From a virus, in UHGV virus genome UHGV-0072281: a stretch of DNA of 64,000 nucleotides. One strand, 5' to 3'. Within the stretch, counting starts at the first letter, position 1, and every line of letters begins with the position of its first letter. Made by a program: the position numbers and the translations under genes. The notes under the pieces are model-generated. The model was given only the letters and a program-made list of their open reading frames with translations, was not told the DNA's origin and did not search any database. Shown in pieces: positions 1,360-47,655 of the stretch.

Positions 1360-1393
1360 CCACTAACAACCAACTTTTATAGAGATTAAATTA

Positions 1394-5410: not shown

Positions 5411-5432
5411 TGCAGGTGACTCCGTTAATTAT

Positions 5433-6320: not shown

Positions 6321-6343
6321 TGAATACCTCTGACACGTTTCTA

Positions 6344-6553
6344 CTACTTATTACCGCCAGCACCACGGCTACAACTACCGCTACAGGACCAGCTACACCC
6401 ACCGTTACAGTTATAGTGACTCAACGGTAAACCAGAAAGGTTATTAGTGGACGACACCGTACCCTGGTTTGCAATATAGTTGTTTGCTCCTGCTGTGGTA
6501 ATGTATCCTTCCGCCGTTACTAATCTGTCGCGTATGTTTTTAAGACTTATCAT
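6344..6553 (-). CDS. short Cys-rich peptide C (leader + short core)
   Basis: 69 aa; leader MISLKNIRDRL similar to peptides A and B; core HYNCNGGCSWSCSGSCS; ATG 3 nt after the stop of peptide B. Confidence 0.6.
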   Translation of the reverse strand: MISLKNIRDRLVTAEGYITTAGANNYIANQGTVSSTNNLSGLPLSHYNCNGGCSWSCSGSCSRGAGGNK

Positions 6554-6556
6554 TTC

Positions 6557-6955: not shown

Positions 6956-7017
6956 TTTAACACCTACTGGTTCAGTGCCAGCTAAGGCACATTATAATTC
7001 ATTCTCTGTAAAAAATA

Positions 7018-7929: not shown

Positions 7930-7953
7930 CAGTAATAGTACCTATCTGTTAAA

Positions 7954-8346
7954 TTAAGTCGGTCCTGAACAAGACGCACATGCGCCACTACATCCCGAGC
8001 TACAACGCCCGGAGCATCTACCACTGCATGTAGCGCTGCAACCAGTGCACCCACCAGAACACGTAGCGCTGCAACCAGTGCATTGATTACCGCAGGCGGA
8101 TGAACAGCTTCCAACACACACTGAGGTGCACGTACCAGAACAACTTGTACAACCATGCGTACAACCGTTCGAGCACGTCCAGCTACAGCTACCACCACAG
8201 TCTAATCGACCCGGTGTCCAGCCTGAAAAAGAATCTGCGGCATTGTGAGCTTTTGATGCAACCTGTGGATCGACGCGGGGTCCTGTCGCCATTTGATTCT
8301 CTACGTTGGTGATTCGATCGCGAACGTTTTTAACACTAATCGCCAT
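7954..8346 (-). CDS. Cys-rich CXXX-repeat peptide A (putative radical SAM substrate)
   Basis: 130 aa; leader MAISVKNVRDRI, junction DCGGSCSWTCS, then CxxxC-periodic core; AAGGA SD. Confidence 0.7.
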   Translation of the reverse strand: MAISVKNVRDRITNVENQMATGPRVDPQVASKAHNAADSFSGWTPGRLDCGGSCSWTCSNGCTHGCTSCSGTCTSVCVGSCSSACGNQCTGCSATCSGGCTGCSATCSGRCSGRCSSGCSGACASCSGPT

Positions 8347-14836: not shown

Positions 14837-14857
14837 CGTAAAGACTCCTACTTTTTA

Positions 14858-14894
14858 AATAAAATGGATACCCCTCCCCATTACAGGGAGGGGT
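14858..14894 (-). terminator. hairpin between the 1394-aa and 1727-aa fibre genes
   Basis: Minus strand: cccctccc-tgtaat-ggggaggg followed at ~8 nt by ttttattt. Confidence 0.45.
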
Positions 14895-14931
14895 TACCTA
14901 CGGACACACAACTGCCCGCAGGCAGCCTGTC

Positions 14932-19116: not shown

Positions 19117-19126
19117 AAAATTCTCC

Positions 19127-27350: not shown

Positions 27351-27908
27351 ATGTCTACTATTGAACTGAAACAACAAGTTATTGGGTTTATTAAGCTGGG
27401 TACAGGTAAACACCGACTTGATTATCCTTGCGTTATACAGTCTAACATTATCCCGGTCGATACAATGATTACCGGTCTTCAGGTTGAAGAATTTGATGGA
27501 GATGCTGTGGTTTGGGAACGCCATTTCACACGACTTAATTATCGTAAAGTCGGAGATAGTTTTACCGAAATATTCCGTCATCTGTTTTCCGGTACCGGAT
27601 GGAAAGTAACGAGTGCGTTCTACGGTGGCAATGTTGTTACGCTTCTAGACAGAGGAGATGCACGTTATCTCGTGAACTTTACTTTCGCAAGACACTATGC
27701 GTATTTCCCTAACCCTCTTACGTGTACGTTAAGTAACCCAGGAATACTACTAACAGATAAAGAAGCAGACGTTCTACTCGCCGAACTGCGAAAAGACGGT
27801 TGCGACGTTGACGATTGGGAAACATTAATCGCGGTTGCCAAAGCACACGGTTGGTACAGCGTACGTAAAATCGGTCAGCAGTTATTATTCTTAGCTTACC
27901 CTGTTTAA
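27351..27908 (+). CDS. hypothetical protein, paralog family B member 2
   Basis: 185 aa; CTAAAGGAG SD; C-terminal GWYSVRKIGQQLLFLAYPV. Confidence 0.65.
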   Translation: MSTIELKQQVIGFIKLGTGKHRLDYPCVIQSNIIPVDTMITGLQVEEFDGDAVVWERHFTRLNYRKVGDSFTEIFRHLFSGTGWKVTSAFYGGNVVTLLDRGDARYLVNFTFARHYAYFPNPLTCTLSNPGILLTDKEADVLLAELRKDGCDVDDWETLIAVAKAHGWYSVRKIGQQLLFLAYPV

Positions 27909-27938
27909 GTAACAAAAAAACCTAAAGGAGAGTAAAAA

Positions 27939-29090
27939 ATGCGAAATATTATTTCTAAACCAGGACATGTCAAGATCCTAAAAGAACTGATGGACAGATG
28001 CTATAATCGGACTTGGCCTCTGCCAAGCTTAACCATCGAGTCTTCATTACAACGCGAGTTGTTTGGTTATAACTTGGGCTGCTGCGTACTGAGTGAATAC
28101 GATGAGATTATCGCGCCTGTCGATGTCTGTACTTACGATGAAGAAATTGAAGGTTACCAGTTCGAGGTTTACACAAATTCTGGACTAAATTACCGTAAAC
28201 TCGTTGTTAGAGAAAAGAGTAGCGGCCGGAAGATTATGTTTAAGGTCTTCCCAAGCGGTAAAGTCAGTAGTTTATGTTTTCAGCTTGAGCAAGTGTCCTT
28301 TCACGGCGCAGCTATTTTAACTAAAGCAGAACGTGCGTTATTAAGCGGGTTAATCGGCTTTGAAGCAAAAACCATCAAAGTAGAACAGGAACTCACACGA
28401 AACGATTTCGGCTCGACCTGGTACGAAAGTTTCTTCCGCTACGAAATTTTAAGTGATAAAGCTATCAAACTCACTTACCGTTCTACCGACGATCTCGTTT
28501 ACCACATTTTAATTAGCGGCGAACCCCATCTGATTATTGAAGACAAAGGAGAAAATCAAATGTCTGGCTTAAGAGACGAATTAGCCCAATTCATTCGTGA
28601 CGTCGAAGAGAAAAGCAAGAGCGATCACATTTTCTCACAACGCTATCCTGAACTTATTGACGAAACCACCGATAGTGTCGTCGATGTTATACGCATTTTC
28701 CCAAGTGGTTTTGCAATCTACCGACTGCCTAGCGTTAATCAGCTTAAAGTCATGGAAATGCTAAAAGACGTTTTAGCAGAAGCGGGTTGGGAATATCGTT
28801 TCGATTGCAATTTCGAAGGGATGGCGTTATTCGTTACAAAGAAAAATTATACGTTGTCAATCGATCTGCCCAAAAGTCAATATTACAGTTTCTTCCCAAA
28901 AGCGTATGACCGCACTGAAAAAGAACCTGCGTTGTTACTCGATGCGGCAGAATCCAATACGCTAATGATGCGTCTGCGGATGGTTGACAAAAAGTTAAAT
29001 ACCGGCCATCTAACGACGATCGGTAAAGATTACGGTTGGAAATCTGTCGAACCGTACGGCAGTCAGCTGCTGTTTGTTGCTGACCTTTAA
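27939..29090 (+). CDS. hypothetical protein, paralog family B member 3
   Basis: 383 aa; CTAAAGGAG SD; C-terminal GWKSVEPYGSQLLFVADL. Confidence 0.65.
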   Translation: MRNIISKPGHVKILKELMDRCYNRTWPLPSLTIESSLQRELFGYNLGCCVLSEYDEIIAPVDVCTYDEEIEGYQFEVYTNSGLNYRKLVVREKSSGRKIMFKVFPSGKVSSLCFQLEQVSFHGAAILTKAERALLSGLIGFEAKTIKVEQELTRNDFGSTWYESFFRYEILSDKAIKLTYRSTDDLVYHILISGEPHLIIEDKGENQMSGLRDELAQFIRDVEEKSKSDHIFSQRYPELIDETTDSVVDVIRIFPSGFAIYRLPSVNQLKVMEMLKDVLAEAGWEYRFDCNFEGMALFVTKKNYTLSIDLPKSQYYSFFPKAYDRTEKEPALLLDAAESNTLMMRLRMVDKKLNTGHLTTIGKDYGWKSVEPYGSQLLFVADL

Positions 29091-29116
29091 TAAGTAAAAA
29101 TACACTTTCTCTAACT

Positions 29117-29142
29117 GCCGCGCTTTAGTCGCGGCTTTTGTT
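29117..29142 (+). terminator. intrinsic terminator
   Basis: gccgcg-ctttagt-cgcggc then ttttgtt. Confidence 0.6.
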
Positions 29143-29157
29143 AAGAAGGAAAAAGAA

Positions 29158-29931
29158 ATGAAAATCCATTTAGATCACCTCTTTAAATCTGAACCGTATA
29201 TGGTTAAAGGTTCGCTGGCTTCATTGTTGCTAGACGATAGATTTCATCGAACGCTGCAATTACAATCGGTCGAATCCGCGCCAACAGAAGACGTGGGTCT
29301 TTATCAACGTATCACTTATACACGTGGAGAATATCGGCGATATAAACCTGATACGCTAACCGTTAAGCTCTGGCAAGTGGCCACAGGCAAAGTATTAACT
29401 TATCGCGCTGTTGGTCTGTACTACGTTGAACGTGCCTACGCATGGTTAGAAGAAGTTAAAGAAATGGATTACGACCGTTTAAGCAAAAGACTACGCGATA
29501 ATAACGCCAGTTTACCGCTACGTAATTATTTCTCCACAATTGAAAATAGTCGTTGTTTCGTTTCACGCGAATCCATGATATTGCCTGGGGCTGATGTTCA
29601 GACGACACTAAAAGATGTGGTTGTGAGGAAAATCTTTCATGAATCTGAACACGTTGGATTTCGTATCTATTTAACGCACAAGAGGCCATTTACCGTGATT
29701 CATCTTGTTACCGTACCCGAAGGCTCGGCAGTCGTACGTGAACTTCCTGACGCACGTGACCGTAGCCCTAATGAGCCACTTTACTTAATGTCAGGAACAA
29801 AATCAGAATCTTTGATGTCCCGTTACAGCATGGTTGATGTTGTTGATACTGCTATGAAATTAGGTTGGAAAGAAGTACAGCAACACGGCAAACAATTGCT
29901 GTTTATCGCAGATGTAAATCTCAATAACTAA
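29158..29931 (+). CDS. hypothetical protein, paralog family B member 4
   Basis: 257 aa; AAGGAAA SD; C-terminal GWKEVQQHGKQLLFIADV. Confidence 0.65.
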   Translation: MKIHLDHLFKSEPYMVKGSLASLLLDDRFHRTLQLQSVESAPTEDVGLYQRITYTRGEYRRYKPDTLTVKLWQVATGKVLTYRAVGLYYVERAYAWLEEVKEMDYDRLSKRLRDNNASLPLRNYFSTIENSRCFVSRESMILPGADVQTTLKDVVVRKIFHESEHVGFRIYLTHKRPFTVIHLVTVPEGSAVVRELPDARDRSPNEPLYLMSGTKSESLMSRYSMVDVVDTAMKLGWKEVQQHGKQLLFIADVNLNN

Positions 29932-30651: not shown

Positions 30652-31113
30652 ATGAAAATTTTCACTTCCTTTTTAATCGTTCTTTTCGCAATCGGATTCA
30701 ATACTGCACACGCTGCAATCAATAGTTGGGAACAACTACAGAACCCAGGTCAGGCTGTTTACGAAATTGAAGACACCGCCGGAAACGGACTGTCTATCAA
30801 CTGTGACACTGAAACTGCGAATCGCAAATTTTACGGTCGCATGGTTTGGTATTACGGGGAACCTGTAGGTGCAACTAACGCTGAAGACAACACGCTGGAT
30901 ATCGTCGTAAATGGCAAAACTTACAACATCCCTACCGTGGATGGTAGTGACAAAGCAGAACACGCTTGGGTGGCTTTCGTTAATGCTATCGGCAATGCCA
31001 AAACTTTCAGTGTGAATATCAACGGAAACGAAGCCGCTAACTTTACCGTAGAAGGTGAACGTCTGTCTGAAACTTTCTTCCAGAACTGTGGACACACCCG
31101 TCCTAACAAATAA
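30652..31113 (+). CDS. small secreted protein (signal peptide)
   Basis: GAGGAG SD; N-terminus MKIFTSFLIVLFAIGFNTAHA/A typical of a signal peptide. Confidence 0.65.
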   Translation: MKIFTSFLIVLFAIGFNTAHAAINSWEQLQNPGQAVYEIEDTAGNGLSINCDTETANRKFYGRMVWYYGEPVGATNAEDNTLDIVVNGKTYNIPTVDGSDKAEHAWVAFVNAIGNAKTFSVNINGNEAANFTVEGERLSETFFQNCGHTRPNK

Positions 31114-31141
31114 GTATTAATCTTTTTTAGAGTGCGTGAAA

Positions 31142-31528
31142 ATGAATATCAGAACTATACTTTATACCATCATTATTTTCTGTGCAGTCGGTATTACTGC
31201 CACTTATGCTTTCGGTGAATCGGATGTCCGCTATTACGAACCGGCTCCTGACTCACCGATTATCAACCCGGATGAGACGCCTACGTTAATGCGCAGTTTC
31301 GGTAAACTGCAAGTTTATCGTTTAGTGCGTGGTGAAACGTGTACGGGATTGCTCATTGCTGACACTCGTGCACAAGTCTACCAACGTCTGACGGATATCG
31401 CCTGCGAACAACCAAAAGTCATGTCGGTCAGTATTCATCCGTTAGAGGTCGGTAACTATACTGCTGTGGACTTCTTCCATAATGCAGAACTGATTGGTCG
31501 TATTACTTTAAATCGTAGCGCTGAATAA
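31142..31528 (+). CDS. small secreted protein (signal peptide)
   Basis: ATG 31142 (track shows GTG 31136); N-terminus MNIRTILYTIIIFCAVGITATYAFG. Confidence 0.6.
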   Translation: MNIRTILYTIIIFCAVGITATYAFGESDVRYYEPAPDSPIINPDETPTLMRSFGKLQVYRLVRGETCTGLLIADTRAQVYQRLTDIACEQPKVMSVSIHPLEVGNYTAVDFFHNAELIGRITLNRSAE

Positions 31529-31546
31529 TTTAATGGAGAATTTACA

Positions 31547-32029
31547 ATGAAACGTTTACATACCCTGATGCTCTTCGTGGCTATTCTGTTCACGGGCTTT
31601 AACTTTAACGCAGAAGCGGCTAGTGTAAAACAAGCACTTAGCTGTAACCCGGAAGCCTGGGCTGAACAACCTGGTGCGTGTCCTGATATCAATACGCTCT
31701 ATACCGACGACGCTACTTATAAAGCCGCAATCGATAAAGCGTTGAAACCTGTCGGACTAGACGGGTTATTCGGTAAAGATGGCGTGATGGATGGTCCTGG
31801 CGGCGATGTTTTCCCTGTACAAATCAACGGCAAAGTCTGGCTTGAGTCTACCTCTTGCAAAAGCAATGCTTGTGGTTGGGAATACATCACGACGCTTTAT
31901 AACCCGCAGACCCATGTCGTGGTAGGTTACTATTACAACGTCGACCCAGGTTACCTGGTTTGGTTTGGCGATATCGGCGTTAATGAATTCGCCTATCTGG
32001 TTAAGAAATACGTAGCTACGGTTAATTAA
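31547..32029 (+). CDS. small secreted protein (signal peptide)
   Basis: GGAG SD; N-terminus MKRLHTLMLFVAILFTGFNFNAEAA. Confidence 0.65.
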   Translation: MKRLHTLMLFVAILFTGFNFNAEAASVKQALSCNPEAWAEQPGACPDINTLYTDDATYKAAIDKALKPVGLDGLFGKDGVMDGPGGDVFPVQINGKVWLESTSCKSNACGWEYITTLYNPQTHVVVGYYYNVDPGYLVWFGDIGVNEFAYLVKKYVATVN

Positions 32030-32044
32030 TTTAAGGAGTCTGTC

Positions 32045-32455
32045 ATGAAAACGTTTATCAAAACTTTACTCGTTGCTGTAACTGTTCTGTTCTCTCTTAA
32101 CGTAGCAGCAAAAACAGTAAAACTACCGGCGGGTATCAAATACGTCAACAGTACCGATGAATTCTACTGCACAGAAATTGACGGTCTGTATTGCCAGACA
32201 AAGAATTTGTTTGAATACAAAGGTAACAGATATGTTTTCGTTGTTGAGCAAGGCGGTGCCTGGTGCTACGACAGCCCTATGTCGGTACTCAACCTGGAAA
32301 CTGGGAAAGCACAGAAAATTGAATACAAAGACAACCAATTGTGTTCAGGCGAAAACAAACCGTTCTTCAAAATCAAAAATGGTGTCCCGACTGTAGGTAT
32401 TATCGACACTTCTGGAGCACCAATCGTTGTAGCTCAGGACAAACTTAAAATCTAA
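32045..32455 (+). CDS. small secreted protein (signal peptide)
   Basis: AAGGAG SD; N-terminus MKTFIKTLLVAVTVLFSLNVAA. Confidence 0.65.
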   Translation: MKTFIKTLLVAVTVLFSLNVAAKTVKLPAGIKYVNSTDEFYCTEIDGLYCQTKNLFEYKGNRYVFVVEQGGAWCYDSPMSVLNLETGKAQKIEYKDNQLCSGENKPFFKIKNGVPTVGIIDTSGAPIVVAQDKLKI

Positions 32456-32465
32456 GGAGTAAACC

Positions 32466-32855
32466 ATGCGTCTTATCTGCGCTTTGTTGGCGTTTTTCTC
32501 AATCGGAGTTATGGCTTCTACACACATCGACGATTTATTACTTACCCCGGCAACGAACACAGACTATCACTACAACCCACCGGGTTTTGAAGTCTGCGAA
32601 GGCGATGCAGGCGAATGCCAAGAAGTTGGCGCAGATGGACGCTATATACTCGTAAAAGCAGACGGAGGAACAACCTGCCCTGCGGGTTATTATTTCGTAC
32701 TTGACTCTGTAGCAAAAGAGGTACTTCCTGTAACGACCAAAACGTGTGACCCCACGGTTGTATTAACCCTTGCGAAAAGCAAATCACGTGACCGTCATCT
32801 TATCGTCATCGAAGAACGCGGTGAGATGTTAGGCGCTATCGAATTAGATTACTGA
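32466..32855 (+). CDS. small secreted protein (signal peptide)
   Basis: AAGGAG SD; N-terminus MRLICALLAFFSIGVMAS; followed by terminator. Confidence 0.65.
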   Translation: MRLICALLAFFSIGVMASTHIDDLLLTPATNTDYHYNPPGFEVCEGDAGECQEVGADGRYILVKADGGTTCPAGYYFVLDSVAKEVLPVTTKTCDPTVVLTLAKSKSRDRHLIVIEERGEMLGAIELDY

Positions 32856-32933: not shown

Positions 32934-33410
32934 ATGCGTTTGTCTAATGTTTATCAAGCAGCCCAATTCCATCATGAACTGACGGCTAAGCCTGAGTATA
33001 TTCGCCACAACTTAACGGTGGCTTGGAAACTGTTATTGATTGCTGATGCTGCACGACACAACGACCAGGAAACCATTATCAAAACCGTGCGTACTTTACG
33101 CCCTATTGACCTGGAAACAATTTGGTCGTTTGACTTAACTCGAATTTATCATCGTCGCTTTAATGCGGCGGTGGATGCGATACGTCCTTATTTCCACTAT
33201 TTGCAAGCAACATCAGACTGTGGTCCATCCTTAGAGTGGGTCTTGGTACAAAGCGTATGGAGCGATTACATTTATCTCCTATCTTTAGAGACGGGTGAAT
33301 GCATTATCGCTAACGAGGTATTCTCAACCAACGCCGAAATGTATCGTTCCCACGCTACTATCCAGGGTGTCTCACAGCCTATCTTATCACTCACGCACTT
33401 AGGGCTGTGA
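32934..33410 (+). CDS. hypothetical protein
   Basis: 158 aa; CTAAAGGAG SD; flanked by terminators. Confidence 0.6.
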   Translation: MRLSNVYQAAQFHHELTAKPEYIRHNLTVAWKLLLIADAARHNDQETIIKTVRTLRPIDLETIWSFDLTRIYHRRFNAAVDAIRPYFHYLQATSDCGPSLEWVLVQSVWSDYIYLLSLETGECIIANEVFSTNAEMYRSHATIQGVSQPILSLTHLGL

Positions 33411-33418
33411 TTAGCCCG

Positions 33419-33446
33419 GCCCCGCTGTGTACGGGGCTTCTTTTTT
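33419..33446 (+). terminator. intrinsic terminator
   Basis: gccccg-ctgtgta-cggggc then ttcttttttg. Confidence 0.65.
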
Positions 33447-33464
33447 GCCAAAGGAAACTGAAAC

Positions 33465-34073
33465 ATGAACGAAATTACTTTGGTTCGTTTTATCGAAGCG
33501 ATGCGACTAAACGAAGCTAATCCTCACTCTCCGTTATTCATCGATTTAATGGAGGAAGAAGTCGAAGGGTTCTTAGCGTACCCGCGTTTGAAAGCGTATT
33601 TCGAACGTAAAACACCAACCGCTTACGAGAAGTTGATGTACGCGTTAGACAACCGTACTACGCTGAACACCACACCGTTTAAAGCGCTGGAAGCAATAGA
33701 CCCTACCGGGGGTGCAGGTATCCCACAACGTGTTGTGTTCTACTACATCGACAACGGCCGTATTAAAGCCGACGTTGTAAACTGGATCTCCGAAGGGGAA
33801 ATCCCAGAAACGCGTACTTTTAACCTCTGTCCGGTAGAAGAAGGTTGGGTCGCAGGAACGCATTATTCCTATCCGTATCAAAGCATCAAATCACCTTATC
33901 TGTATCCGGTGTATTTAGATGACGTTACGCCAGGAAAATGTATTCCCGTTACCAATCTGATTTGCTTACTGACGATGGAAGTTGTTGCGTCAGACGCAGG
34001 CCAGGCTTGGGTTGAGCAATCGAAAAATATCCAAAACTGGCAGCAGATGGGTTACAAACTCTACCAGCCGTAA
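33465..34073 (+). CDS. hypothetical protein
   Basis: 202 aa; AAGGAAA SD; followed by terminator. Confidence 0.6.
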   Translation: MNEITLVRFIEAMRLNEANPHSPLFIDLMEEEVEGFLAYPRLKAYFERKTPTAYEKLMYALDNRTTLNTTPFKALEAIDPTGGAGIPQRVVFYYIDNGRIKADVVNWISEGEIPETRTFNLCPVEEGWVAGTHYSYPYQSIKSPYLYPVYLDDVTPGKCIPVTNLICLLTMEVVASDAGQAWVEQSKNIQNWQQMGYKLYQP

Positions 34074-34080
34074 TACCACG

Positions 34081-34128
34081 AGAGAACCTTCGGGTTCTCT
34101 CCCTTCTCTTTTATTTTTTTTTCTTTTT
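34081..34128 (+). terminator. intrinsic terminator
   Basis: gagagaacc-ttcg-ggttctctc then T-rich run. Confidence 0.65.
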
Positions 34129-34158
34129 ACACCACGCTCCGTGAATATGGAGGTGGAC

Positions 34159-36663
34159 ATGTTAAAAGTTGAACGTATTGTACTTAAAGGATTTACCGGA
34201 ATGGGGTTACACGAAATCGAAACCTTCGATTTTACTATCCATTCCCCGACCACCATTATCCTCGGTGGTAACGGCTGCGGTAAGACCAGTTTACTGTCCG
34301 TGTTTCTACCTATCGCACCTTCGAAATCCGAATTCCGTGACGGGGGTTCTTACACCAACATCTGTTTGGTTAACGACCATCGTTACAAGTTTAAGGTTGC
34401 GCGTAAAGGCAACTCACTGGTTTGCGATATCGAGAACCTGACGACGGGTACCAAAATCGTCGAACAAGGTAATGCGAAAGTGTATAACTCTCGTGTAGAA
34501 GAAATCACGGGTATTACAAAAGAGATTAAAGAGTTACTGAACGGAGAAGTGCTTTTAACGGATGCAGGAACGGAACTGCGTCGTAAGTGGTTCTACCGTT
34601 TAAGTACGTCAGACTTAACTTACGCGTTAGGTTTTTATCAACGTTTACGAAAAAACCTGACGATGTTAAACGGCGGTGTTGAAATCACCAGCCGCAAGAT
34701 TGCAGAGTTGCGCACTCGCGTGATTGATAACGAGGAAGAACGTCAGCAGTTAGCAACACGGTTAAAAGCATTAGAAGTAGATTTACGTGAACTCAACAAA
34801 CAGATTGAACAACTGCCGGGTCTGAATCGTGACGTTACGGCGGCAACGATTCAATCGCTATTGCTTAAAATCGAAGCACCGATTAATGCTATCTTGGAAC
34901 ACCGTGGCGGATTACCTACGGAAGAACAGGTAGAGGAAGCACGACGCGTTGAAGCCACTGCCCGTGAAGCGGTGGTCTCTGCTGAAACAGAACTGTCCAT
35001 GCTAAACAAAGATTTGTCTTTGTTGATGGACGAGTCTACCCGCCAAGATTACCTGATGCGGAATCACGAGGGGTTAAAGAACACGGTTGCAAAACTGCGT
35101 GAGTTATTAAAGCAGTGGGACACCGAACATCTTTTCCCTGAACTGTTTGCGGAGACCGTTAATATCGACCAGCTTAAAGCAGCGACAGATGCGCGTGTCT
35201 GGGGACAACGTTTAGGAACAACGCTGGATGCTATTAAATCAACGGAACGGTTGAACGTACTGGAAGAGAAACTGTTGACCTTAGACCAAAACTCATCTGG
35301 GTTGCGTGACCGACTACAACGCGTTGAAAACGTATTGCAGAACCTCAACCACGAACGGAATCACTATTTGGAAACCGCCGAGGTTGATTGTCCGCAGTGT
35401 CAATTTAAATTCCGTCCGGGTGTGCGTCGTTCTTTGCCTGAATTGGAAGAAGCCATTCGTGGACAAATGGAGCAACGTAATACGTTACAGACTCAGCTTG
35501 ATTCCGTATTGCGAGACCGTACGGAATTAGAGTCGGACGTTAACTACATGCGTCAAGTACGAGAAATCGTTTTAACGTACTCGAAAGACCCGGTATTGAG
35601 TTTGTTCTTTAAACGTCTCCAGGAGCGGAATGTCTTTACGGATAACCGCAGTCAATTCGGCAGTCTGTGCGCGGAGTTTGATCATGAACTTTATTCCGCA
35701 ATTGAATACCACGAAACGAAACACCGTTTTGCTAAAGCGGAAAAAGAGTGGGCAAACGCAGTTGCAGCGGTAGGTAACGTTGATGGCGCTCTACAGCAGA
35801 AAATTGCCTTCCAGCAGGAGCGTTTGGGTAAGGCGACAGAAACGCTCTCAGAGCGCCGTAGAGAGCACGCAGTTGCTAATGATACCTTTTGTTATCTAAA
35901 CGAACTTAAAGCCACTGTAGACAATTTTAATGCGGTTTTTGAGCGTTTAGAGAACGATGTTAAGGTAACATTAACCAACACAGTGGTCGAAACGTTATTA
36001 AACGCCCGAGAAAACAAGTTGGATGCGTTCACCACAGCACGGGAACGGTACCGTCAGATGGAAAACGAACTCAACCAACTTACTGCGTTAGAAAAGGAGT
36101 TATCGGATTTACAAGCGCAGCAATTCAATAACAAACTGATGATTCAAGCGTTCTCGCCCGAGAAAGGGGTATTACGCAAATACTTCTACAACGCTATCGT
36201 GAGAATCACAGAATTAATGACGCGGTATATCGAACAAGTCTGGACCTACCCTATGCGGGTCATGCCGTGTGACTTAACCGACGGTGACTTAGACTACACG
36301 TTCCCAGTGCAGTTAAAAACCCATCCTGAACCGGTACCTGACGTGCGGAAAGGGTCGAAAGCGCAGCGGGCCATCTTTAATTTGATGTTTCGTTTAACCG
36401 CTTACAAAGCCCTGAAACTTCATCAGTATCCGCTACTGTTGGATGAACCGTCAGAAGGGATGGATGAGGAACACCGAAATAACCTCGTCGGGTTTATTAA
36501 AACCCTGGCGAATTCCGGTGAGTTCTCTCAGTTACTGGTGGTATCTCACGAAGCAGAAATTCATTCAAAACTTAACGAAGCCGCATACTGTGTTATTGAA
36601 CCTGAAGGTATAACACTGCCTGCGGTATACAACGAGGGAGTAAAAATTGTCTACGCAAACTGA
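34159..36663 (+). CDS. Rad50/SbcC-like SMC-family ATPase
   Basis: ORF 33982..36663; start moved to ATG 34159 after GGAGGTGG (ATG 34147 also possible); Walker A GGNGCGKTS, long coiled-coil middle, CPQC zinc-hook-like motif, C-terminal LLLDEP and VVSHE. Confidence 0.7.
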   Translation: MLKVERIVLKGFTGMGLHEIETFDFTIHSPTTIILGGNGCGKTSLLSVFLPIAPSKSEFRDGGSYTNICLVNDHRYKFKVARKGNSLVCDIENLTTGTKIVEQGNAKVYNSRVEEITGITKEIKELLNGEVLLTDAGTELRRKWFYRLSTSDLTYALGFYQRLRKNLTMLNGGVEITSRKIAELRTRVIDNEEERQQLATRLKALEVDLRELNKQIEQLPGLNRDVTAATIQSLLLKIEAPINAILEHRGGLPTEEQVEEARRVEATAREAVVSAETELSMLNKDLSLLMDESTRQDYLMRNHEGLKNTVAKLRELLKQWDTEHLFPELFAETVNIDQLKAATDARVWGQRLGTTLDAIKSTERLNVLEEKLLTLDQNSSGLRDRLQRVENVLQNLNHERNHYLETAEVDCPQCQFKFRPGVRRSLPELEEAIRGQMEQRNTLQTQLDSVLRDRTELESDVNYMRQVREIVLTYSKDPVLSLFFKRLQERNVFTDNRSQFGSLCAEFDHELYSAIEYHETKHRFAKAEKEWANAVAAVGNVDGALQQKIAFQQERLGKATETLSERRREHAVANDTFCYLNELKATVDNFNAVFERLENDVKVTLTNTVVETLLNARENKLDAFTTARERYRQMENELNQLTALEKELSDLQAQQFNNKLMIQAFSPEKGVLRKYFYNAIVRITELMTRYIEQVWTYPMRVMPCDLTDGDLDYTFPVQLKTHPEPVPDVRKGSKAQRAIFNLMFRLTAYKALKLHQYPLLLDEPSEGMDEEHRNNLVGFIKTLANSGEFSQLLVVSHEAEIHSKLNEAAYCVIEPEGITLPAVYNEGVKIVYAN

Positions 36664-36847
36664 TTGGTGGCGTCAGTTACTAAGCGTTTTAGGCTTTAGC
36701 GTCATGGTGCTGGTTGCCATTCTGTACGTGCTATTTTGTATAACGGCGATTTTATGGGTGGTCTTAGCGTACGCGATTAGGCTCACCTGGGGTTCAATTT
36801 GGCACCAACGCGAATGTGAGTGGCGGTGTGTTGGAGGGAAGTCATGA
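36647..36847 (+). CDS. small hydrophobic membrane protein
   Basis: 66 aa with TTG start after GGGAG SD; two hydrophobic helices. Confidence 0.45.
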   Translation: MSTQTDWWRQLLSVLGFSVMVLVAILYVLFCITAILWVVLAYAIRLTWGSIWHQRECEWRCVGGKS

Positions 36848-36954
36848 TTGAGGGTATTCTGTTAACACTTGGGTCGTTGTGGATTATTGGGAAATCCCTC
36901 AACTGGCTGATTAAAAAGCACGGATGGGCTTTCAAAGGCTCTACGTACAGTTAA
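36844..36954 (+). CDS. tiny hydrophobic peptide (36 aa)
   Basis: ATGA start/stop overlap with previous ORF; MIEGILLTLGSLWIIGKSLNWLIKKHGWAFKGSTYS; below the ORF-track cutoff. Confidence 0.35.
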   Translation: MIEGILLTLGSLWIIGKSLNWLIKKHGWAFKGSTYS

Positions 36955-36963
36955 GTTAGAACC

Positions 36964-36991
36964 CCCTCCTGGGTAACTGGGAGGGTGTTTT
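36964..36991 (+). terminator. possible terminator/attenuator between tiny ORFs
   Basis: ccctcc-(10-nt loop)-ggaggg then tgtttta; short U-tract. Confidence 0.4.
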
Positions 36992-37005
36992 ACGAGGGAA
37001 GAACT

Positions 37006-37134
37006 ATGACTGTTGTCAATACTACCAATGCTGCAATCGGCGCTTTATATAACGCGGAACTAACATGGGGTGCGGGTTTTATTACCGTACTGCTTCTCGC
37101 CGCAGCCGCTTTTATCATTGGACGTTGGTTTTAA
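37006..37134 (+). CDS. tiny hydrophobic peptide (42 aa)
   Basis: GAGGGAAG SD; MTVVNTTNAAIGALYNAELTWGAGFITVLLLAAAAFIIGRWF; below the ORF-track cutoff. Confidence 0.4.
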   Translation: MTVVNTTNAAIGALYNAELTWGAGFITVLLLAAAAFIIGRWF

Positions 37135-37166
37135 TTTCATCTTTTTGCGTCTGTAAGGTCTGATAA

Positions 37167-37610
37167 ATGGAAATTTATTTGTTGAACGCACATTCTAAAA
37201 TCGGTGAGCAGCAAGCGAAAGATTTACTCGCACTCCATTACCGTTACTTAGATCACCAAGCAACGATGCTGAAAATCAAAACCGCTGTACCGAAATTAAA
37301 CGTGCGTCAACTGATCGAAGGCAACTGTGTTGTTCTGATTTATATCGACGATGTTGCGGTGGGTTATTGCAGTTACCGTAATCGCAACGGGGTACTCAAA
37401 ATTCGTTCGTTATACGTGCTGCCCGATTACCGTCAGCGTGGGGTAATGAAAGAAATCTTCAAAGCGATAGCCACTGATGAAACATTCGGTGAAATTGCAA
37501 TTGGGATGTACACGAAGTGCAAAGAAGCGAAAGAGTATTTCATTCGTCGTGGCTACAAAGCAACCTATTCTCACGATAAAGAATGGGTGGAATTCAGTAA
37601 AACTTTCTAA
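37167..37610 (+). CDS. GNAT-family N-acetyltransferase
   Basis: 147 aa; VLPDYRQRGVMKEIFKAI resembles the acetyl-CoA-binding motif; C-terminal EAKEYFIRRGYK. Confidence 0.55.
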   Translation: MEIYLLNAHSKIGEQQAKDLLALHYRYLDHQATMLKIKTAVPKLNVRQLIEGNCVVLIYIDDVAVGYCSYRNRNGVLKIRSLYVLPDYRQRGVMKEIFKAIATDETFGEIAIGMYTKCKEAKEYFIRRGYKATYSHDKEWVEFSKTF

Positions 37611-37626
37611 AACAATAAAGGCTCTC

Positions 37627-37655
37627 TTGACGTTCCTCACTATGAGTGTGAGAAT
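37627..37655 (+). promoter_or_regulatory. sigma70-like promoter candidate
   Basis: TTGACG, 17-nt spacer, TGtGAGAAT (extended -10-like), ~20 nt upstream of ATG 37677. Confidence 0.3.
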
Positions 37656-37676
37656 TTTACGTCAGGAGAGCTACTT

Positions 37677-37913
37677 ATGTTAAACAGTTTCGGTGTAGGT
37701 GGAATGGATACAAGCATTTGCTGGAAAGAATACGAACGTGCAAATGCATTTCTCCAGCATCCCAACGTGGGTAAGATCGGTCAGGTGTGTTTTGGTAAAC
37801 CTGCACTGACAGCCTGTATTCAAGGTGCGTTAGGAACGCTGCCACCTGAATCACCTTTCGAGCCTAAGGAGAATCCAGATGTTACCAGGAACCCAAACCC
37901 CGTATCTATTTAG
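37677..37913 (+). CDS. hypothetical protein
   Basis: 78 aa; AGGAGAG SD. Confidence 0.5.
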   Translation: MLNSFGVGGMDTSICWKEYERANAFLQHPNVGKIGQVCFGKPALTACIQGALGTLPPESPFEPKENPDVTRNPNPVSI

Positions 37914-38253
37914 TGAACCACTGGATAACAGCGACATCTTACAAATCTGTTATCAGTGTCACGAAATCGGTGGTAGTGAACTTACGCGGGTTAATAAACT
38001 GCTGTGGCTGATTCCAGAAATCGAATTACCGTTCGTTAAACCGAGTTTGTGGCGTCGTGGTGCGTGTCGCGAAGCGTATATGCTGTCAAAGTTTAACATT
38101 AATCTGGAGAAGGTCTGGGAGAAGATGAACGACGGCCAAACCAGAGAACAGATTACTCACACGCTGGAATTGCACCTTGCCATGAAACGCCTCGGTCTCG
38201 AACACGAAGGACTGGAGTCCGTTATCAGTCAATGGGTGAAAAGGAATCGTTAA
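37879..38253 (+). CDS. hypothetical protein
   Basis: 124 aa; AAGGAG SD; overlaps previous ORF by 35 nt. Confidence 0.55.
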   Translation: MLPGTQTPYLFSEPLDNSDILQICYQCHEIGGSELTRVNKLLWLIPEIELPFVKPSLWRRGACREAYMLSKFNINLEKVWEKMNDGQTREQITHTLELHLAMKRLGLEHEGLESVISQWVKRNR

Positions 38254-38326: not shown

Positions 38327-38851
38327 ATGCTTACCTCACTCGGTAAGACCGTTATGCTAACGATACTTCCAGAATCGGTTATTGACAACGACCTGTTTAA
38401 CGCCCCTGAGCGCTTCAAGGTCGTTACGATAAATTGTGTAGGGGCAATGGGTCGGGGTATCGCTTTAGCGTGCAGAGAACGCTATCCTGGGCTTTATCAG
38501 GACTACCGAGAACGTTGCTTCGCTAACGAGATACGAATAGGGAATGTGTACGTTTATCCCGAGGAAAACTGCATTCTCTTACCAACTAAAACACATTGGA
38601 AACTGAAATCCCAGGTTTCTTATGTTATCGCGGGTATCACCGCGTTGGCAGATGCCGCAGAAAACTTAGAGGGTGGGGTGGCTTTACCGCCGTTAGGGAT
38701 GGCCAACGGTTGGTTGACAAAAGCTGAATGTCAACAAATCTTTTTGTTTATCGAAAAGAAACTCGTACCGAGGAGACAACAATACTGTTTCTATTTACCT
38801 GATCCGCTTTACCAAGAAGCAAAACCTTTAATTCCAAACCTTTTTAAATAG
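38327..38851 (+). CDS. macrodomain protein (putative ADP-ribose-binding/hydrolase, TARG1/DarG-like)
   Basis: 174 aa; INCVGAMGRGIALACRERYPGLY and later ALPPLGMANGWL resemble macrodomain signatures as remembered; start may be ATG 38354. Confidence 0.55.
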   Translation: MLTSLGKTVMLTILPESVIDNDLFNAPERFKVVTINCVGAMGRGIALACRERYPGLYQDYRERCFANEIRIGNVYVYPEENCILLPTKTHWKLKSQVSYVIAGITALADAAENLEGGVALPPLGMANGWLTKAECQQIFLFIEKKLVPRRQQYCFYLPDPLYQEAKPLIPNLFK

Positions 38852-38866: not shown

Positions 38867-38951
38867 CACACAACAAAGGAGTACCAGCTGTCCGCGCCGT
38901 GATTTCGTTCTACGGAATACGGAAATGTATAAATCCAACTGGAGAACTAGT

Positions 38952-39638
38952 ATGTTTCGTATCTTCTTTCTTTTACTGGTAACACTTTTCGCGTTTAACG
39001 CATACGCATCCAAATCCGCGCCCAGTACCAAACACCATCGTGAATTCGAAATGATTCAAGACCGTTTCGAACGGGTAAAACCGTTGATTGTGGAAATCTC
39101 TCGAAAGCAGGGTGTTGATCCTAATTTGATGACCACGCTAATCTATCGAGAGTCACGGTTTAATCCGAAAGCGTATAATCGAACGTCTAAAGCGCACAGT
39201 CTGGTTCAGATGCTGCCGAGCACAAAGCGTAATTTGCTAAAACTCTACGGTGCCGAAATCGGACTTAGCCGCAATGCAGATTTGTACAATCCTCGTAATG
39301 CGGTGCTATTGGCTTCCGTCTACGTTAAACATTTAGAAAAGGGGTTAACTAAACGACTCAAACGCAAGCCCACTATTGCAGAAATAGCATTGGCTTATCA
39401 CTGGGGTGAAAGCGGTGCACACGCCAGGATTAAAAGCAAGTCTCGGGCAGCACAACGAGAAATGGCGAGCTTTATGAAAGATGCAACGTTCTACAGTGCA
39501 AAAATCAACAAGCCTGTAGCATCTCGTCAGCTTGCGTTTGCGAAGAAACCAGAACGCCAGATTCAGTTAGCAGAAGTTAACCGAATTTGGGATACGATAA
39601 ACACCAGTTTTCCATTTAAACAAGGAGTCACCCTTTGA
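38952..39638 (+). CDS. lytic transglycosylase (SLT-like domain) with signal peptide
   Basis: ORF 38925..39638; start moved to ATG 38952 after GGAGAA; MFRIFFLLLVTLFAFNAYAS signal-like; YRESRFNPKAYNRTSKAHSLVQMLPST resembles SLT catalytic region. Confidence 0.6.
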   Translation: MFRIFFLLLVTLFAFNAYASKSAPSTKHHREFEMIQDRFERVKPLIVEISRKQGVDPNLMTTLIYRESRFNPKAYNRTSKAHSLVQMLPSTKRNLLKLYGAEIGLSRNADLYNPRNAVLLASVYVKHLEKGLTKRLKRKPTIAEIALAYHWGESGAHARIKSKSRAAQREMASFMKDATFYSAKINKPVASRQLAFAKKPERQIQLAEVNRIWDTINTSFPFKQGVTL

Positions 39639-42957: not shown

Positions 42958-44331
42958 TTACTCCTCGTCGATTTCAGTATACCATTTCGCTTTACGAGAC
43001 AGTATGCGATATTCGACGTTATCGTATTCAAACACCCAGAAGTAGTTATCTGGATCGGCTTCATCAACGAGTTTCACGACGTCCAGACTGGTCTGATACG
43101 GATGGTATTCTTCCGCTGCTATTAACGCCTGGAAGAACAACGCTAACCACTCTGTGGTGGATTTCGACATTCGTGCAATGTCTGGGTTTGTTGTTGCAAT
43201 CAGTGCGTAGTCTGGTAACGTTTCGTGTAAGGTATTCTTACGAGTGTCGTTTTCAGGACCACTGATAACCACCATGTTCAGTGATTTATACACAGTAGGT
43301 AAATCGGTAACATCCGTTGTCGGTTTGCTTACCGTATTACTATTTCTTTCTGCAACAGACTGATCAGACCATTCCCCAAACTTTGTAATGGCTTTGACCC
43401 AGAAATCATATGGAAGGATGGGGGAATAGAGAGCCGCCACGTCTTCCTCATTCGGTATACCACGGATTTTCCACCCCGGAACCATTGTGAATTTCGTAGT
43501 GGTAAAGATCTCAGGGAATACCTTCACCCCAATCGGAACCGTAAAGCTGGAGTTTGCAAGAATATGTTCACGCAACGCTTGCTTTATTTTCGTTGGGTTT
43601 TTTCCTGCACGTCCGTAAATGATAACCGACATTGGAACAACCAGTGTTGACTCGTAGTTTTCTTGGTCATGCCAGGTGTAGTAGTTAGTTTGGATGGCAG
43701 TATACGGGAACCCTGCCATTAACTCGTTGATTTTCTTATGGTGTTCGGTAAGGTTAAACCCTTCCATCGCTTTTTCAACGACTGACTTTGTGGCCAAGAA
43801 TGTGTCGATTGGCTCAATCGGCATCTGTACTTCGATTTCAAAACCCGTGTAGTCCTGGTCGAAGTCTTCATCCGAGAACCAAACTATGATTTGGTTATCT
43901 ACATCAGTGTCATCTTGTACTTGATCTGCTGTTGCTTCATATTTCCAGCTCACCCAACGTGGGAACCAGTTACTGTTCGTCTGGATCATCGCACCGGACT
44001 GAACACCGGAAATGGTTGTTTGGAATTGGCCTAATAATAGGCGCTGGAATTCAAGTTCGTCATTTCTCAGATTCCCCAAGATGGCTTGCTGGTAAATCCA
44101 TTGAGAAACGGTTAGAATATGATCAGAAAACTCGGCTGGAACAACAACCGTCTGTTTTTCTCGTTTAGACGTAAATGTCACCAACTGCACTTGCAGATTG
44201 GATTTAGTAAACGTCTGTTTACTCTTCGCGTACGAGAGGGTCAGATCAGACAGCTCACCTACCGGAGCGGTGACGCCGTCCTGATTGTCAAACAGAGCCG
44301 GTATCTGAATAAAACCTTGTAAGTCTAACAT
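42958..44331 (-). CDS. hypothetical protein
   Basis: ORF 42958..44391; start moved to ATG 44331 (MLDLQGF) after GGAG; longer form would overlap divergent gene start. Confidence 0.55.
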   Translation of the reverse strand: MLDLQGFIQIPALFDNQDGVTAPVGELSDLTLSYAKSKQTFTKSNLQVQLVTFTSKREKQTVVVPAEFSDHILTVSQWIYQQAILGNLRNDELEFQRLLLGQFQTTISGVQSGAMIQTNSNWFPRWVSWKYEATADQVQDDTDVDNQIIVWFSDEDFDQDYTGFEIEVQMPIEPIDTFLATKSVVEKAMEGFNLTEHHKKINELMAGFPYTAIQTNYYTWHDQENYESTLVVPMSVIIYGRAGKNPTKIKQALREHILANSSFTVPIGVKVFPEIFTTTKFTMVPGWKIRGIPNEEDVAALYSPILPYDFWVKAITKFGEWSDQSVAERNSNTVSKPTTDVTDLPTVYKSLNMVVISGPENDTRKNTLHETLPDYALIATTNPDIARMSKSTTEWLALFFQALIAAEEYHPYQTSLDVVKLVDEADPDNYFWVFEYDNVEYRILSRKAKWYTEIDEE

Positions 44332-44356
44332 AATTAAAAATACTCCGAGGTGAGCA

Positions 44357-44860
44357 ATGGGTTCATTTCTTAAAGTGCTTCCGTTCTTCATTCAGATGTT
44401 GATGGAAGCATTTAAACCAGGAGAAGGAGAAAACGTATCAAGAGCAAACAAGATAATGACTTTAATCATCACGGTCTTGTTATCCTACTCGGCTTTCGTC
44501 TCCTATGCGTACGTAGTGCAGTTTCACAAGCTCGTTACAGTACAATCGCATGATCAATACATGTCGCAATCTTACCAAGAGATGAAGCAAGATCGTGACA
44601 AACTGAAAGATGATAATGGTAGATTATACGACAAGCTCTTTATTTGCCTCGGCCAGAAACCGCCATATGAAAGCGGGTACAGCTCGGTAAAAGAAGACGT
44701 CTCTGCCAAAGATTTAACACCTAAGAAACCAGAAACTCCTGTTAGCCCAGCTTCAACACCAGAACAACGCAAAGAAGCTTCGGCACGACCTGTTGGTAGT
44801 CAAGACGCTAACAGTTTCCGTCAGGAGATCATAAAGACGTTATCGTCACCTAAGGAGTAA
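44357..44860 (+). CDS. membrane-anchored protein with charged coiled-coil-like tail
   Basis: 167 aa; GAGGTGA SD; hydrophobic segment IMTLIITVLLSYSAFVSYAYVV then K/D/E-rich region. Confidence 0.6.
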   Translation: MGSFLKVLPFFIQMLMEAFKPGEGENVSRANKIMTLIITVLLSYSAFVSYAYVVQFHKLVTVQSHDQYMSQSYQEMKQDRDKLKDDNGRLYDKLFICLGQKPPYESGYSSVKEDVSAKDLTPKKPETPVSPASTPEQRKEASARPVGSQDANSFRQEIIKTLSSPKE

Positions 44861-45406: not shown

Positions 45407-46141
45407 ATGACATACCCGAAAACGATTCAACCCACCTTACCGACGCTGGTAATTGGTGCTGACGCAGAAACCAAATCACTGCGTCCTGATGCGTATTTGT
45501 TAACCACAGGCTTAGTTGCCTTTGACGTACCGACTTTAAAAATGGTAGGGTCGTCGTATATGCGTATTGATCCTAACGACCCTAAAGCAAAAGCTGTGTT
45601 CCACGAAGACCCGCAAACCGTGGGGTGGTGGGAAGGTAAAGGAGAACCTGAATACGCACCGTCTCGTGAAGCCTACACGGAAGCATGGGGTGGTACAACT
45701 CCTATGCCGGAAGCGCTGTGGGCAATGCGGAAGTGGTTAGACGAAATCACCGGCAAACACAATTTCGTTATTACCATGCGTGGGCCAGATTTCGATTCTC
45801 CAATTTTCATGAACGCGTTCGCACAATGTGACGTCCCTCCAGGTAAGTTCCGTAAGTTTAGTGCGTTAGACAGCGACCGCACCGCAGAGCGTTTAGCGCT
45901 GGCGTTTGGTTTTGAGCCTGACTTGACCGTTGAGCAAGTTTACTGGACGCGGGGTAAACCGGCATTTGAACACCATGCTTTGTGGGACGCTGCGAAAGAA
46001 GCGTACACCACCGCACGTATTTATCACCTTGCACTGATTACCCGCGAGTATGGGTACGAACGTGCTAAAGCCTGTCACGAAGAACTGAAAACCGGTGAGT
46101 ATATTCCACCACAGATTCGTGATCAGTTAACCAGGGATTAA
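45407..46141 (+). CDS. DEDDh-type 3'-5' exonuclease (DnaQ-like fold)
   Basis: 244 aa; AAGGAG SD; VIGADAETKS (Exo I D-x-E), GPDFDSPIF (Exo II), HHALWDA (Exo III). Confidence 0.7.
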   Translation: MTYPKTIQPTLPTLVIGADAETKSLRPDAYLLTTGLVAFDVPTLKMVGSSYMRIDPNDPKAKAVFHEDPQTVGWWEGKGEPEYAPSREAYTEAWGGTTPMPEALWAMRKWLDEITGKHNFVITMRGPDFDSPIFMNAFAQCDVPPGKFRKFSALDSDRTAERLALAFGFEPDLTVEQVYWTRGKPAFEHHALWDAAKEAYTTARIYHLALITREYGYERAKACHEELKTGEYIPPQIRDQLTRD

Positions 46142-46143
46142 GA

Positions 46144-47655
46144 ATGAAGAACGTTGATGTTGCTGTACTTTATACCGACGGTAGCCATTTAACCTCACCG
46201 ATGGGAACAGGCGGTGGGATTCACGGCTACCTGTTTAACAAGGAAGAGATTGTTGACGGTGGCGTTTATCGCCACCCTACCATTCCCGAAGGGATTACGA
46301 CCTCTGGTTATCGTCAGATTAACAAAGAGGAAAAACTTCCTGCGTTACCAGACTCCGTTGAGTTTGTGGACTGCGTTATTCCAGTACCGAAACACCACCA
46401 CTCCGATGTTGCAGAGATTGTTGCTTTTTTAACCGTTTTCGAAAAAGCACCATTCGTTGCAAAAAACTACGTTATCTATATCGACGCGTCTTACGTTGTG
46501 AATACGTTTAACGATTGGATTGACGGTTGGGCTAAGCGGGACTGGCGACGGGCTGATGGAACCCCTATCGCGAACCTTGAGCTGGTTCAACGGATGTGGG
46601 AAATTAAGAAACGTCTGAAGAGAGAAGGGAAAGGGATTCGTGTTCTTAAAATCAAAGGACACTCTGGTCACTACGGTAACGAACGAGCTGACGGGCTGGC
46701 ACGAAAAGGATCATCCATCTCTGCGCACGGAGAAGGTTTAGATTATCAGGCGTACTGGTCAGCAGATGAAATCCCGGAAGAACAGCAGGAAGAAATCGTC
46801 AGTGAAGGCGTTAACGTTGCCGCGTTTCCTGATATTTGCGTAACTAAGTTCTGTTACCCGATGGTAAATGAGCAGCACCCTACAGTTAAAGTAAACGGTG
46901 AAAATCTCTATTACATGTTCGGGGGTAACCACGCAAAACAGAAGGACGATATTGTCTTCGTTGGGAAATACATTCCTGATGCGCAGTTTTGTGTGATGTT
47001 TACACGTGAGCCGTGGACGAACGTTTACGATTTGGTTAACACCCACGCTGCTAAAGCCTGGGAGGGCGTACCACGTTTGCGTCAGTTTGACCCTATCGCT
47101 GTTGTGTTCAACCTGTTCGTAAAACGTAAGAAGTTTGCGGAAGCAGCGGCTAACGGTATCCCGGTTGACAAAATGCACTTTAGCGAAGACAAAAACCTGT
47201 GGATGTACGAAGACTTGTCTATCAGTCGTATTCTGCGTCCCGCGTTATTGTCATACCGCTGCGTAACCATTCGTGATGAACTGGCAGAGTGGCTGCGTGA
47301 CTGTTTGGAAGGCAAATCGAACGTTGTCTTAAATGACATTACCGATTTGCTTTATGACGAAAAAGGTAAACCCACCAAAGACTTTTACCGAAACGTGGAT
47401 AAAGGGTTTGACGTTTCCATTAAAATTCCTAACGGGAAGGTTGACGTTAAAACTATTCTGACGCGTGCTATCGACATACCGACACGTACGGAAATCAACC
47501 GTATTAAAGAACCAAACGGGCGATTCTACATTGCTGTACGTCGTCCAGAACGTCAGTATATTGAATACGCGTTAGTGTATATCGGTGAGAAGTATCATGG
47601 TCTGTGGTGTGGTTATTATTCAAACAAACGAATATTGACCGATAAGGAACTTTGA
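46144..47655 (+). CDS. RNase HI-domain protein with ~330-aa C-terminal extension
   Basis: 503 aa; N-terminal VAVLYTDGS ... KGHSGHYGNERADGLARKG matches RNase HI catalytic signatures; C-terminal two-thirds unassigned. Confidence 0.7.
   Translation: MKNVDVAVLYTDGSHLTSPMGTGGGIHGYLFNKEEIVDGGVYRHPTIPEGITTSGYRQINKEEKLPALPDSVEFVDCVIPVPKHHHSDVAEIVAFLTVFEKAPFVAKNYVIYIDASYVVNTFNDWIDGWAKRDWRRADGTPIANLELVQRMWEIKKRLKREGKGIRVLKIKGHSGHYGNERADGLARKGSSISAHGEGLDYQAYWSADEIPEEQQEEIVSEGVNVAAFPDICVTKFCYPMVNEQHPTVKVNGENLYYMFGGNHAKQKDDIVFVGKYIPDAQFCVMFTREPWTNVYDLVNTHAAKAWEGVPRLRQFDPIAVVFNLFVKRKKFAEAAANGIPVDKMHFSEDKNLWMYEDLSISRILRPALLSYRCVTIRDELAEWLRDCLEGKSNVVLNDITDLLYDEKGKPTKDFYRNVDKGFDVSIKIPNGKVDVKTILTRAIDIPTRTEINRIKEPNGRFYIAVRRPERQYIEYALVYIGEKYHGLWCGYYSNKRILTDKEL

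Follow-up and report, generated by a model that had tools for sequence, protein, structure and literature searches.

The SbcC and SbcD proteins are practically universal in jumbo phages (PMC7824862). In SPN3US, gp27 has been named SbcD, and the SbcC and SbcD genes were described as 'drastically separated' in both SPN3US and phiKZ (Thomas et al. 2016, PMC5105663). Gene separation is a general habit of these genomes, with the genes for the RNA polymerase and for the head split as well (PMC5105663). The SPN3US gp186 protein is essential, as its amber mutant is lethal, and gp46, the 'SbcC subunit' of T4, is essential too (both PMC5105663). In phiKZ, no Tn insertions are tolerated in orf165 (PMC12676376), and ASO knockdown of gp165, as well as of the 'nuclease' gp065, lowers the fitness of the phage (PMC12571901). 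The phiKZ gp165 gene is on the core-genome gene list (PMC12571901, PMC12676376), while gp065 is annotated as 'SbcD-like subunit' in RefSeq.

The gene considered here lies in a stretch of 64,000 nucleotides of the UHGV virus genome UHGV-0072281 (below, the window). Its orthologs are SPN3US gp186, Asesino gp207 and phiKZ gp165, and in all likelihood its product is the SbcC/Rad50 subunit of a phage SbcCD (Mre11–Rad50-type) DNA-end-processing complex, the nuclease of which is encoded elsewhere. The open frame to which the gene belongs spans 33982–36663 of the plus strand. Judging by the sequence, the ATG at 34159 is the correct start: it is preceded by GGAGG, and the N-terminus MLKVERI is common to all relatives. 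The gene, its motifs and its immediate neighbours are as follows (coordinates are those of the window):

33465..34073, plus strand: upstream ORF, 202 aa, phrog_9964 (function not known), context only
34080..34101, plus strand: terminator-like hairpin with a 9 bp stem and a TTCG loop, between the 202-aa ORF and the SbcC-like gene
34149..34153, plus strand: Shine-Dalgarno GGAGG, 5 nt 5' of the ATG at 34159, as read from the sequence
34159..36663, plus strand: SbcC/Rad50-like ABC ATPase gene, 834 aa
34264..34290, plus strand: Walker A / P-loop GGNGCGKTS, aa 36–44
34570..35373, plus strand: ascending coiled-coil arm, aa 138–405, helical in the AF2 model
35389..35400, plus strand: zinc-hook motif CPQC, aa 411–414, in the apical loop that joins the two arms
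35434..36150, plus strand: descending coiled-coil arm, aa 426–664, from the AF2 model
36352..36366, plus strand: degenerate ABC signature motif GSKAQ, aa 732–736, where P. furiosus Rad50 has SGGE in the alignment
36433..36465, plus strand: Walker B LLLDEP, aa 759–764, and D-loop SEGMD, aa 765–769
36538..36552, plus strand: H-loop VVSHE, aa 794–798
36647..36847, plus strand: small hydrophobic ORF, 66 aa, phrog_16515, sharing 17 nt with the end of the SbcC gene

The first-pass annotation described a Rad50/SbcC-like protein of 834 aa with Walker A, a coiled coil, CPQC, LLLDEP and VVSHE, and this description is borne out by the motifs, the AF2 model, the PHROG_77 match and the top rank of Rad50. 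Each of the motifs listed there occurs only once in the product, and CPQC is situated at its nearly exact midpoint. The motifs of the bipartite ABC head align with those of P. furiosus Rad50 and are invariant or nearly so among 21 homologs; the invariant positions are the Walker A residues, C411, P412 and C414 of the hook, Walker B, D769, S796 and H797.

The AF2 model, built from the alignment of these 21 homologs, has a mean pLDDT of 82.8. A beta-rich N-lobe (residues 1–127) is followed by helices running out (138–405), the CPQC hairpin, helices running back (426–664) and a C-lobe (665–834). The helical arms have roughly 250 residues each, and the apex of the coiled coil is a loop of about 20 residues containing CPQC; no SMC-type hinge domain is present at the apex of the model. 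As modelled, the protein is of the Rad50/SbcC architecture, with a predicted zinc hook in place of the SMC hinge.

The full length of the protein is matched by PHROG_77, 'SbcC-like subunit of palindrome specific endonuclease', at 1.2e-90 (306 bits). The Pfam SMC_N profile covers residues 4–808, its score of 35.1 bits being below the gathering cutoff of 40. When a family profile is compared with the PDB, the best solved structure is P. furiosus Rad50 (3.5e-10, both lobes aligned), and Foldseek places Rad50 from the C. thermophilum MRN complex first (1.9e-19). A tblastn search yields 281 matching records among 50,697 phage records, and all named matches are phiKZ-like jumbo phages, including Goslar ('putative SbcC-like protein') and 201phi2-1 ('hypothetical SbcC'). 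The SPN3US-like and Erskinevirus phages show 57–69% amino acid identity at 100% coverage (69% for Asesino gp207, 68–69% for the Erwinia phages phiEaH2 and Asesino, 57% for SPN3US gp186), and the identity to PHIKZ165 is about 25%. The hook is retained in phiKZ (CPSC, position 412 of 830) and in Goslar (CPKC, position 402 of 818). The gene order in the window is collinear with SPN3US gp170–gp208 and with Asesino gp190–gp227.

The source is an uncultivated phiKZ-like (Chimalliviridae), nucleus-forming jumbo phage from the SPN3US/Erskinevirus-like clade. Megablast of the region 33000–38000 against isolated phages gives no nucleotide-level match; the window is 100% identical over 8.5 kb to IMGVR_UViG_3300014543_000002, a 107 kb fragment. 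The host is probably Salmonella, since NCBI lists a 98%-identical copy of the upstream 202-aa protein under Salmonella enterica.

No Mre11/SbcD gene is found in the 64 kb window by tblastn and phmmer with an SbcD ortholog as the query, which extends to the whole window the initial remark that no such gene adjoins the SbcC-like one. Similarly, Pfam yields no Metallophos or Mre11 match among all other window ORFs of at least 50 aa and three giant ORFs. An HMM search for Mre11/SbcD had been suggested at the outset; run with Pfam on the window ORFs it is negative, but a check of this kind is a false negative for the clade's own SbcD. Indeed, both the SbcD of SPLA3 and that of the same-species genome have no match at E<=0.01, and the SbcD-like Asesino gp44 has Metallophos as its single match, the value of 0.0029 falling short of the curated cutoff. 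Since Pfam misses true SbcD-like proteins of this clade, the absence of SbcD from the window rests on the tblastn and phmmer searches.

Detection of the SbcD-like protein of the clade takes the PHROG_100 profile or a direct homology search. The 'SbcD-like subunit' gene of SPLA3, an SPN3US-like phage annotated by Pharokka, matches PHROG_100 at 1e-52, and phmmer comparison of the SbcD-like proteins with PDB sequences produces no meaningful match. With the full N-terminus, the SbcD-like protein features all five calcineurin-type phosphoesterase motifs, GDVHL, GDLFDD, GTPSHD, MHG and HHDH (GHDH in SPN3US).

The two genes occur in largely the same phages. With the SPLA3 protein as the query, tblastn finds SbcD-like genes in 288 phage records, compared to 281 for SbcC. 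When the records are sorted by the first word of the phage name, the SbcD and SbcC counts are equal or within one for most words: 81 and 81 for Pseudomonas, 21 and 21 for Serratia, 19 and 19 for Aeromonas, 16 and 16 for Klebsiella, 13 and 13 for Ralstonia. The one larger difference is Erwinia, 62 and 53.

The position of the partner is seen in the genome IMGVR_UViG_3300045988_078609 (224,831 bp), which is 97.6% identical to the window at the nucleotide level, has an SbcC protein with 99% amino acid identity and represents the same species. There, SbcC is encoded at 130793–133294 and the SbcD-like protein, with its five motifs complete, at 43658–44803, on the same strand and 87 kb apart. In 20 related genomes with both coordinates available, the shorter circular distance between SbcC and SbcD is 86–114 kb. 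Going by this near-identical genome, the SbcD partner of the window phage is predicted to be encoded about 87 kb away, the window contig itself being only 107 kb long. In phiKZ, Asesino and SPLA3 the SbcD-like gene shares a block with genes for non-virion RNA polymerase subunits; in this family the SbcD-like gene, next to these and to the ChmC gene, thus belongs to another conserved block than SbcC.

The separation of SbcC and SbcD is already known: it has been in print since 2016 and is the norm for phiKZ-like phages (PMC5105663). The expectation in the first-pass annotation, that the partner normally sits next to the ATPase, holds for E. coli and T4 (PMC5105663), but not for the phiKZ-like phages, where a distant SbcD is usual. 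It had left two explanations, the partner being elsewhere or the protein having another role; the coordinates in the same-species genome and in the 20 relatives support the former, whereas the latter is disfavoured.

Another role was considered in two forms, both of which touch on the unusual features of the protein. The signature position is GS-x-[AGS]-Q throughout the family, as against SGGQ/E: GSKAQ here, GSDSQ in phiKZ and GSKGQ in Goslar. At that, the serine and the glutamine are retained and the two glycines are mostly lost. No conserved Q-loop glutamine is found before the coiled coil in a five-way alignment, and the PDB profile alignments skip this segment. The degenerate signature, the lack of a located Q-loop glutamine and the long arms are traits of the whole family and not specific to the window.

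Because the signature glycines are lost, no Q-loop glutamine is found, the arms are extra-long and the gene is uncoupled from SbcD in the genome, one may suppose that the Chimalliviridae SbcC-like ATPase has an altered ATP cycle and an extra, SbcD-independent job in the phage nucleus, for instance to tether or resolve replication concatemers ahead of packaging. We consider this improbable; if true, such a job would account for the ATPase being essential.

It is also unlikely that the ATPase works without the partner in a structural, SMC-like role, for example in tethering or organising replicating or concatemeric DNA in the phage nucleus, with the distant SbcD-like nuclease acting separately. 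The SbcC and SbcD genes are unlinked and belong to different transcription units, as such a role would have it, but scattering of genes is habitual in these genomes, where the RNA polymerase and head genes are also split (PMC5105663), and the phyletic distribution of SbcC and SbcD is near-identical. The arms, about 300 residues longer in total than those of T4 gp46 (PMC5105663), fit this role as well, yet their apex carries the CxxC hook and no SMC hinge. Further, the Foldseek matches include, below Rad50, Smc5/6, condensin, MukB, JetC and LmuB (E-values 1e-10 to 1e-17), although Rad50 ranks first by both sequence and fold. The degenerate signature and the Q-loop may be counted in favour of the SMC-like role, and the place of phiKZ gp165 among the core-genome genes against it.

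The neighbours of the SbcC-like gene provide no replacement for SbcD. Between the gene and the upstream 202-aa ORF there is a GC-rich hairpin and, directly after it, a long T-rich tract (together 34080–34128). This ORF had been reported to lack phosphoesterase motifs, and in fact it has no recognisable domain and no fold match; the structural check of 33465..34073 proposed at that stage revealed neither a cryptic nuclease nor a calcineurin-like fold. The ORF lies directly upstream on the same strand, belongs to phrog_9964 and is kept at the same position in SPN3US (gp185) and Asesino (gp206), which would suit a cryptic non-canonical nuclease replacing Mre11/SbcD. However, this reading is largely refuted and has very little probability left: apart from the lack of a fold match, the terminator hairpin intervenes, and in phiKZ and Goslar the ORF is absent from this position, a divergently transcribed baseplate gene being situated upstream of SbcC. 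Hence the ORF was ruled out as the partner.

The genes downstream had been described as encoding tiny membrane peptides, and small hydrophobic ORFs are indeed seen there. The first, at 36647–36847, is kept in SPN3US (gp187) and Asesino (gp208), and the next, at 36985–37134, likewise encodes a small hydrophobic peptide. No kleisin-like genes are present among the neighbours of the SbcC-like gene. A DEDDh exonuclease (45407–46141) and an RNase H (46144–47655), encoded 8.7 kb downstream, were considered as a partner and rejected, as these are ordinary replication-type enzymes corresponding to SPN3US gp206 and gp207, and a true SbcD exists.

Finally, it is hardly credible that the SbcC-like gene, with an SMC/Rad50-like ATPase as its product, belongs to a system for defence or anti-defence of the Lamassu LmuB, Wadjet JetC or RloC kind. 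PADLOC does report LmuB at 3.5e-17, and Foldseek matches Lamassu LmuB and Wadjet JetC, but the LmuB score of 60.8 bits is far under the 306 bits of PHROG_77. Neither the protein nor its flanks contain LmuA/LmuC, JetABD or a fused nuclease domain, and PADLOC gives no match for the neighbours. Besides, in this family of lytic phages the gene is essential and part of the conserved core.

We return to the SbcC/Rad50 subunit as the preferred reading. By homology, two copies of the SbcC-like protein would dimerise via the CPQC zinc hook and the ATP-dependent engagement of the bipartite ABC heads. The dimer may then act as a clamp on DNA ends or hairpins, allowing an SbcD-like phosphoesterase dimer to cleave and resect these, and this end processing would feed recombination-dependent replication, as in the case of T4 gp46/gp47. 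The formation of the SbcC–SbcD complex, its ATP-dependent nuclease activity and its role in recombination are thus suggested by analogy. The present analysis itself covers the architecture and motifs of the protein, its orthology to SPN3US gp186 and phiKZ gp165, the absence of SbcD from the window and the motif-complete SbcD-like gene found in the same-species genome and in all the relatives examined.

The result is mainly a correct annotation: the gene encodes the ATPase for recombination and end processing that a phiKZ-like jumbo phage is expected to have in its core set, a finding that is real but ordinary. The lesson is that, in genomes of this kind, the lack of an adjacent partner or of a Pfam Metallophos match does not show that the partner is absent. 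Both are uninformative because genes of linked function lie scattered and the SbcD-like nuclease has diverged beyond the reach of Pfam. The workings of a Mre11–Rad50-type machine in the phage nucleus concern the family as a whole rather than this window.

Of the known systems, the SMC family (Smc5/6, condensin, MukB, JetC, LmuB) shares with the window protein the ABC head and the long antiparallel coiled coil. Unlike these, the window protein has a predicted zinc hook and no hinge, and no kleisin, KITE, LmuA/C or JetABD partners are encoded nearby.

The resemblance to P. furiosus Rad50 and to Rad50 of the C. thermophilum MRN complex is closer, as both lobes of the head align and the CxxC hook is situated at the apex. 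However, the window protein is only about 10–13% identical to archaeal and eukaryotic Rad50, its signature is degenerate, and its SbcD-like partner is highly divergent.

T4 gp46/gp47 and E. coli SbcC/SbcD represent the same combination of a bipartite coiled-coil ABC ATPase with a calcineurin-like phosphoesterase (PMC5105663). In T4 and E. coli the paired genes are adjacent or nearly so (PMC5105663), whereas here the distance is about 87 kb. [quoted passage not shown]

The closest systems are SPN3US gp186, Asesino gp207 and phiKZ gp165, proteins of 830–836 aa that, like the one from the window, have the same motifs, CPxC in the middle of the protein and an SbcD-like gene far off, at about 90–114 kb. 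In SPN3US and Asesino, the order of the flanking genes is also as in the window. Compared to these three proteins, the window protein shows no difference of substance, and the window phage is their uncultivated IMG/VR relative.

The minus strand of the window carries, within 3181-8346, small ORFs built from CxxxCxxx repeats, interspersed among three radical-SAM genes:

3181-4503, minus strand, radical-SAM gene
4487-5410, minus strand, radical-SAM gene
6344-6553, minus strand, small CxxxCxxx-repeat ORF
6557-6955, minus strand, small CxxxCxxx-repeat ORF
7018-7929, minus strand, radical-SAM gene
7954-8346, minus strand, small CxxxCxxx-repeat ORF

An example of the repeat in the small ORFs is CSGGCTGTCIGQCTTTCTGTCSRTCHGGCSQSC. 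The top NCBIfam match of the 440-aa radical-SAM enzyme is TIGR04115 (1.3e-34, under the cutoff), the "radical SAM peptide maturase, CXXX-repeat target family". Homologs are present in 101 phage records, among them SPN3US, where the homolog is annotated as "radical SAM superfamily protein 1", and Erwinia and Campylobacter phages. The region looks like a phage-borne RiPP-like cassette of maturase and Cys-repeat substrate.

The cassette adjoins giant fibre-like genes, and several groups of ORFs are found elsewhere in the window:

202-1924, plus strand, tandem array of three paralogous ORFs (188, 179 and 176 aa), DUF7941
9653-23452, minus strand, three giant ORFs in a row (1727, 1393 and 1441 aa)
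27351-29931, plus strand, three adjacent ORFs (185, 383 and 257 aa) with a common C-terminal motif
30652-32855, plus strand, five small ORFs in series (128-160 aa)

The giant ORFs have no Pfam matches; their position corresponds by synteny to SPN3US gp168-170, which makes them probable paralogs of a baseplate or fibre type. DUF7941 is matched by all three ORFs of the first group (1.1e-29, three stretches). The three ORFs at 27351-29931 have no Pfam matches either, and their shared C-terminal motif, GW(K/Y)(S/E)V...G.QLLF(V/I/L)A, suggests a local paralog family. All five small ORFs feature a hydrophobic, signal-peptide-like start and several cysteines, and may encode secreted or periplasmic proteins; one is labelled PF27224 YfjT in a contig annotation.

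The SbcD-like (Mre11-type nuclease) gene was considered in two related phages:

Salmonella phage SPLA3, 32682-33921, SbcD-like gene
SPN3US, 21122-22165, SbcD-like gene

As annotated, the SPLA3 protein (352 aa) is N-terminally truncated and lacks motif I (D-x-H). In the IMG/VR sequence of SPN3US, a few codons upstream of the gene are free of in-frame stops, and their inclusion yields 382 aa (MEKITKPP...) with NTNDIHL present, as in Asesino gp44. The truncation appears to be a database annotation error rather than biology.

Downstream of the SbcC-like ATPase gene of the window lie:

37167-37610, plus strand, GNAT acetyltransferase
38327-38851, plus strand, macro-domain/Appr-1-p-processing-like protein (Pfam Macro 3.9e-4, phrog_335 3.5e-30)
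38925-39638, plus strand, SLT-domain transglycosylase, annotated in relatives as endolysin
45407-47655, plus strand, DEDDh 3'-5' exonuclease, then a 503-aa RNase H-domain protein

The exonuclease is Rv2179c-like (2.7e-11), and the RNase H domain of the 503-aa protein scores 1.2e-19; their SPN3US orthologs are gp206 and gp207, respectively. In the antisense knock-down screen of phiKZ genes, gp155, an "RNase HI domain protein", was strongly required (PMC12571901).
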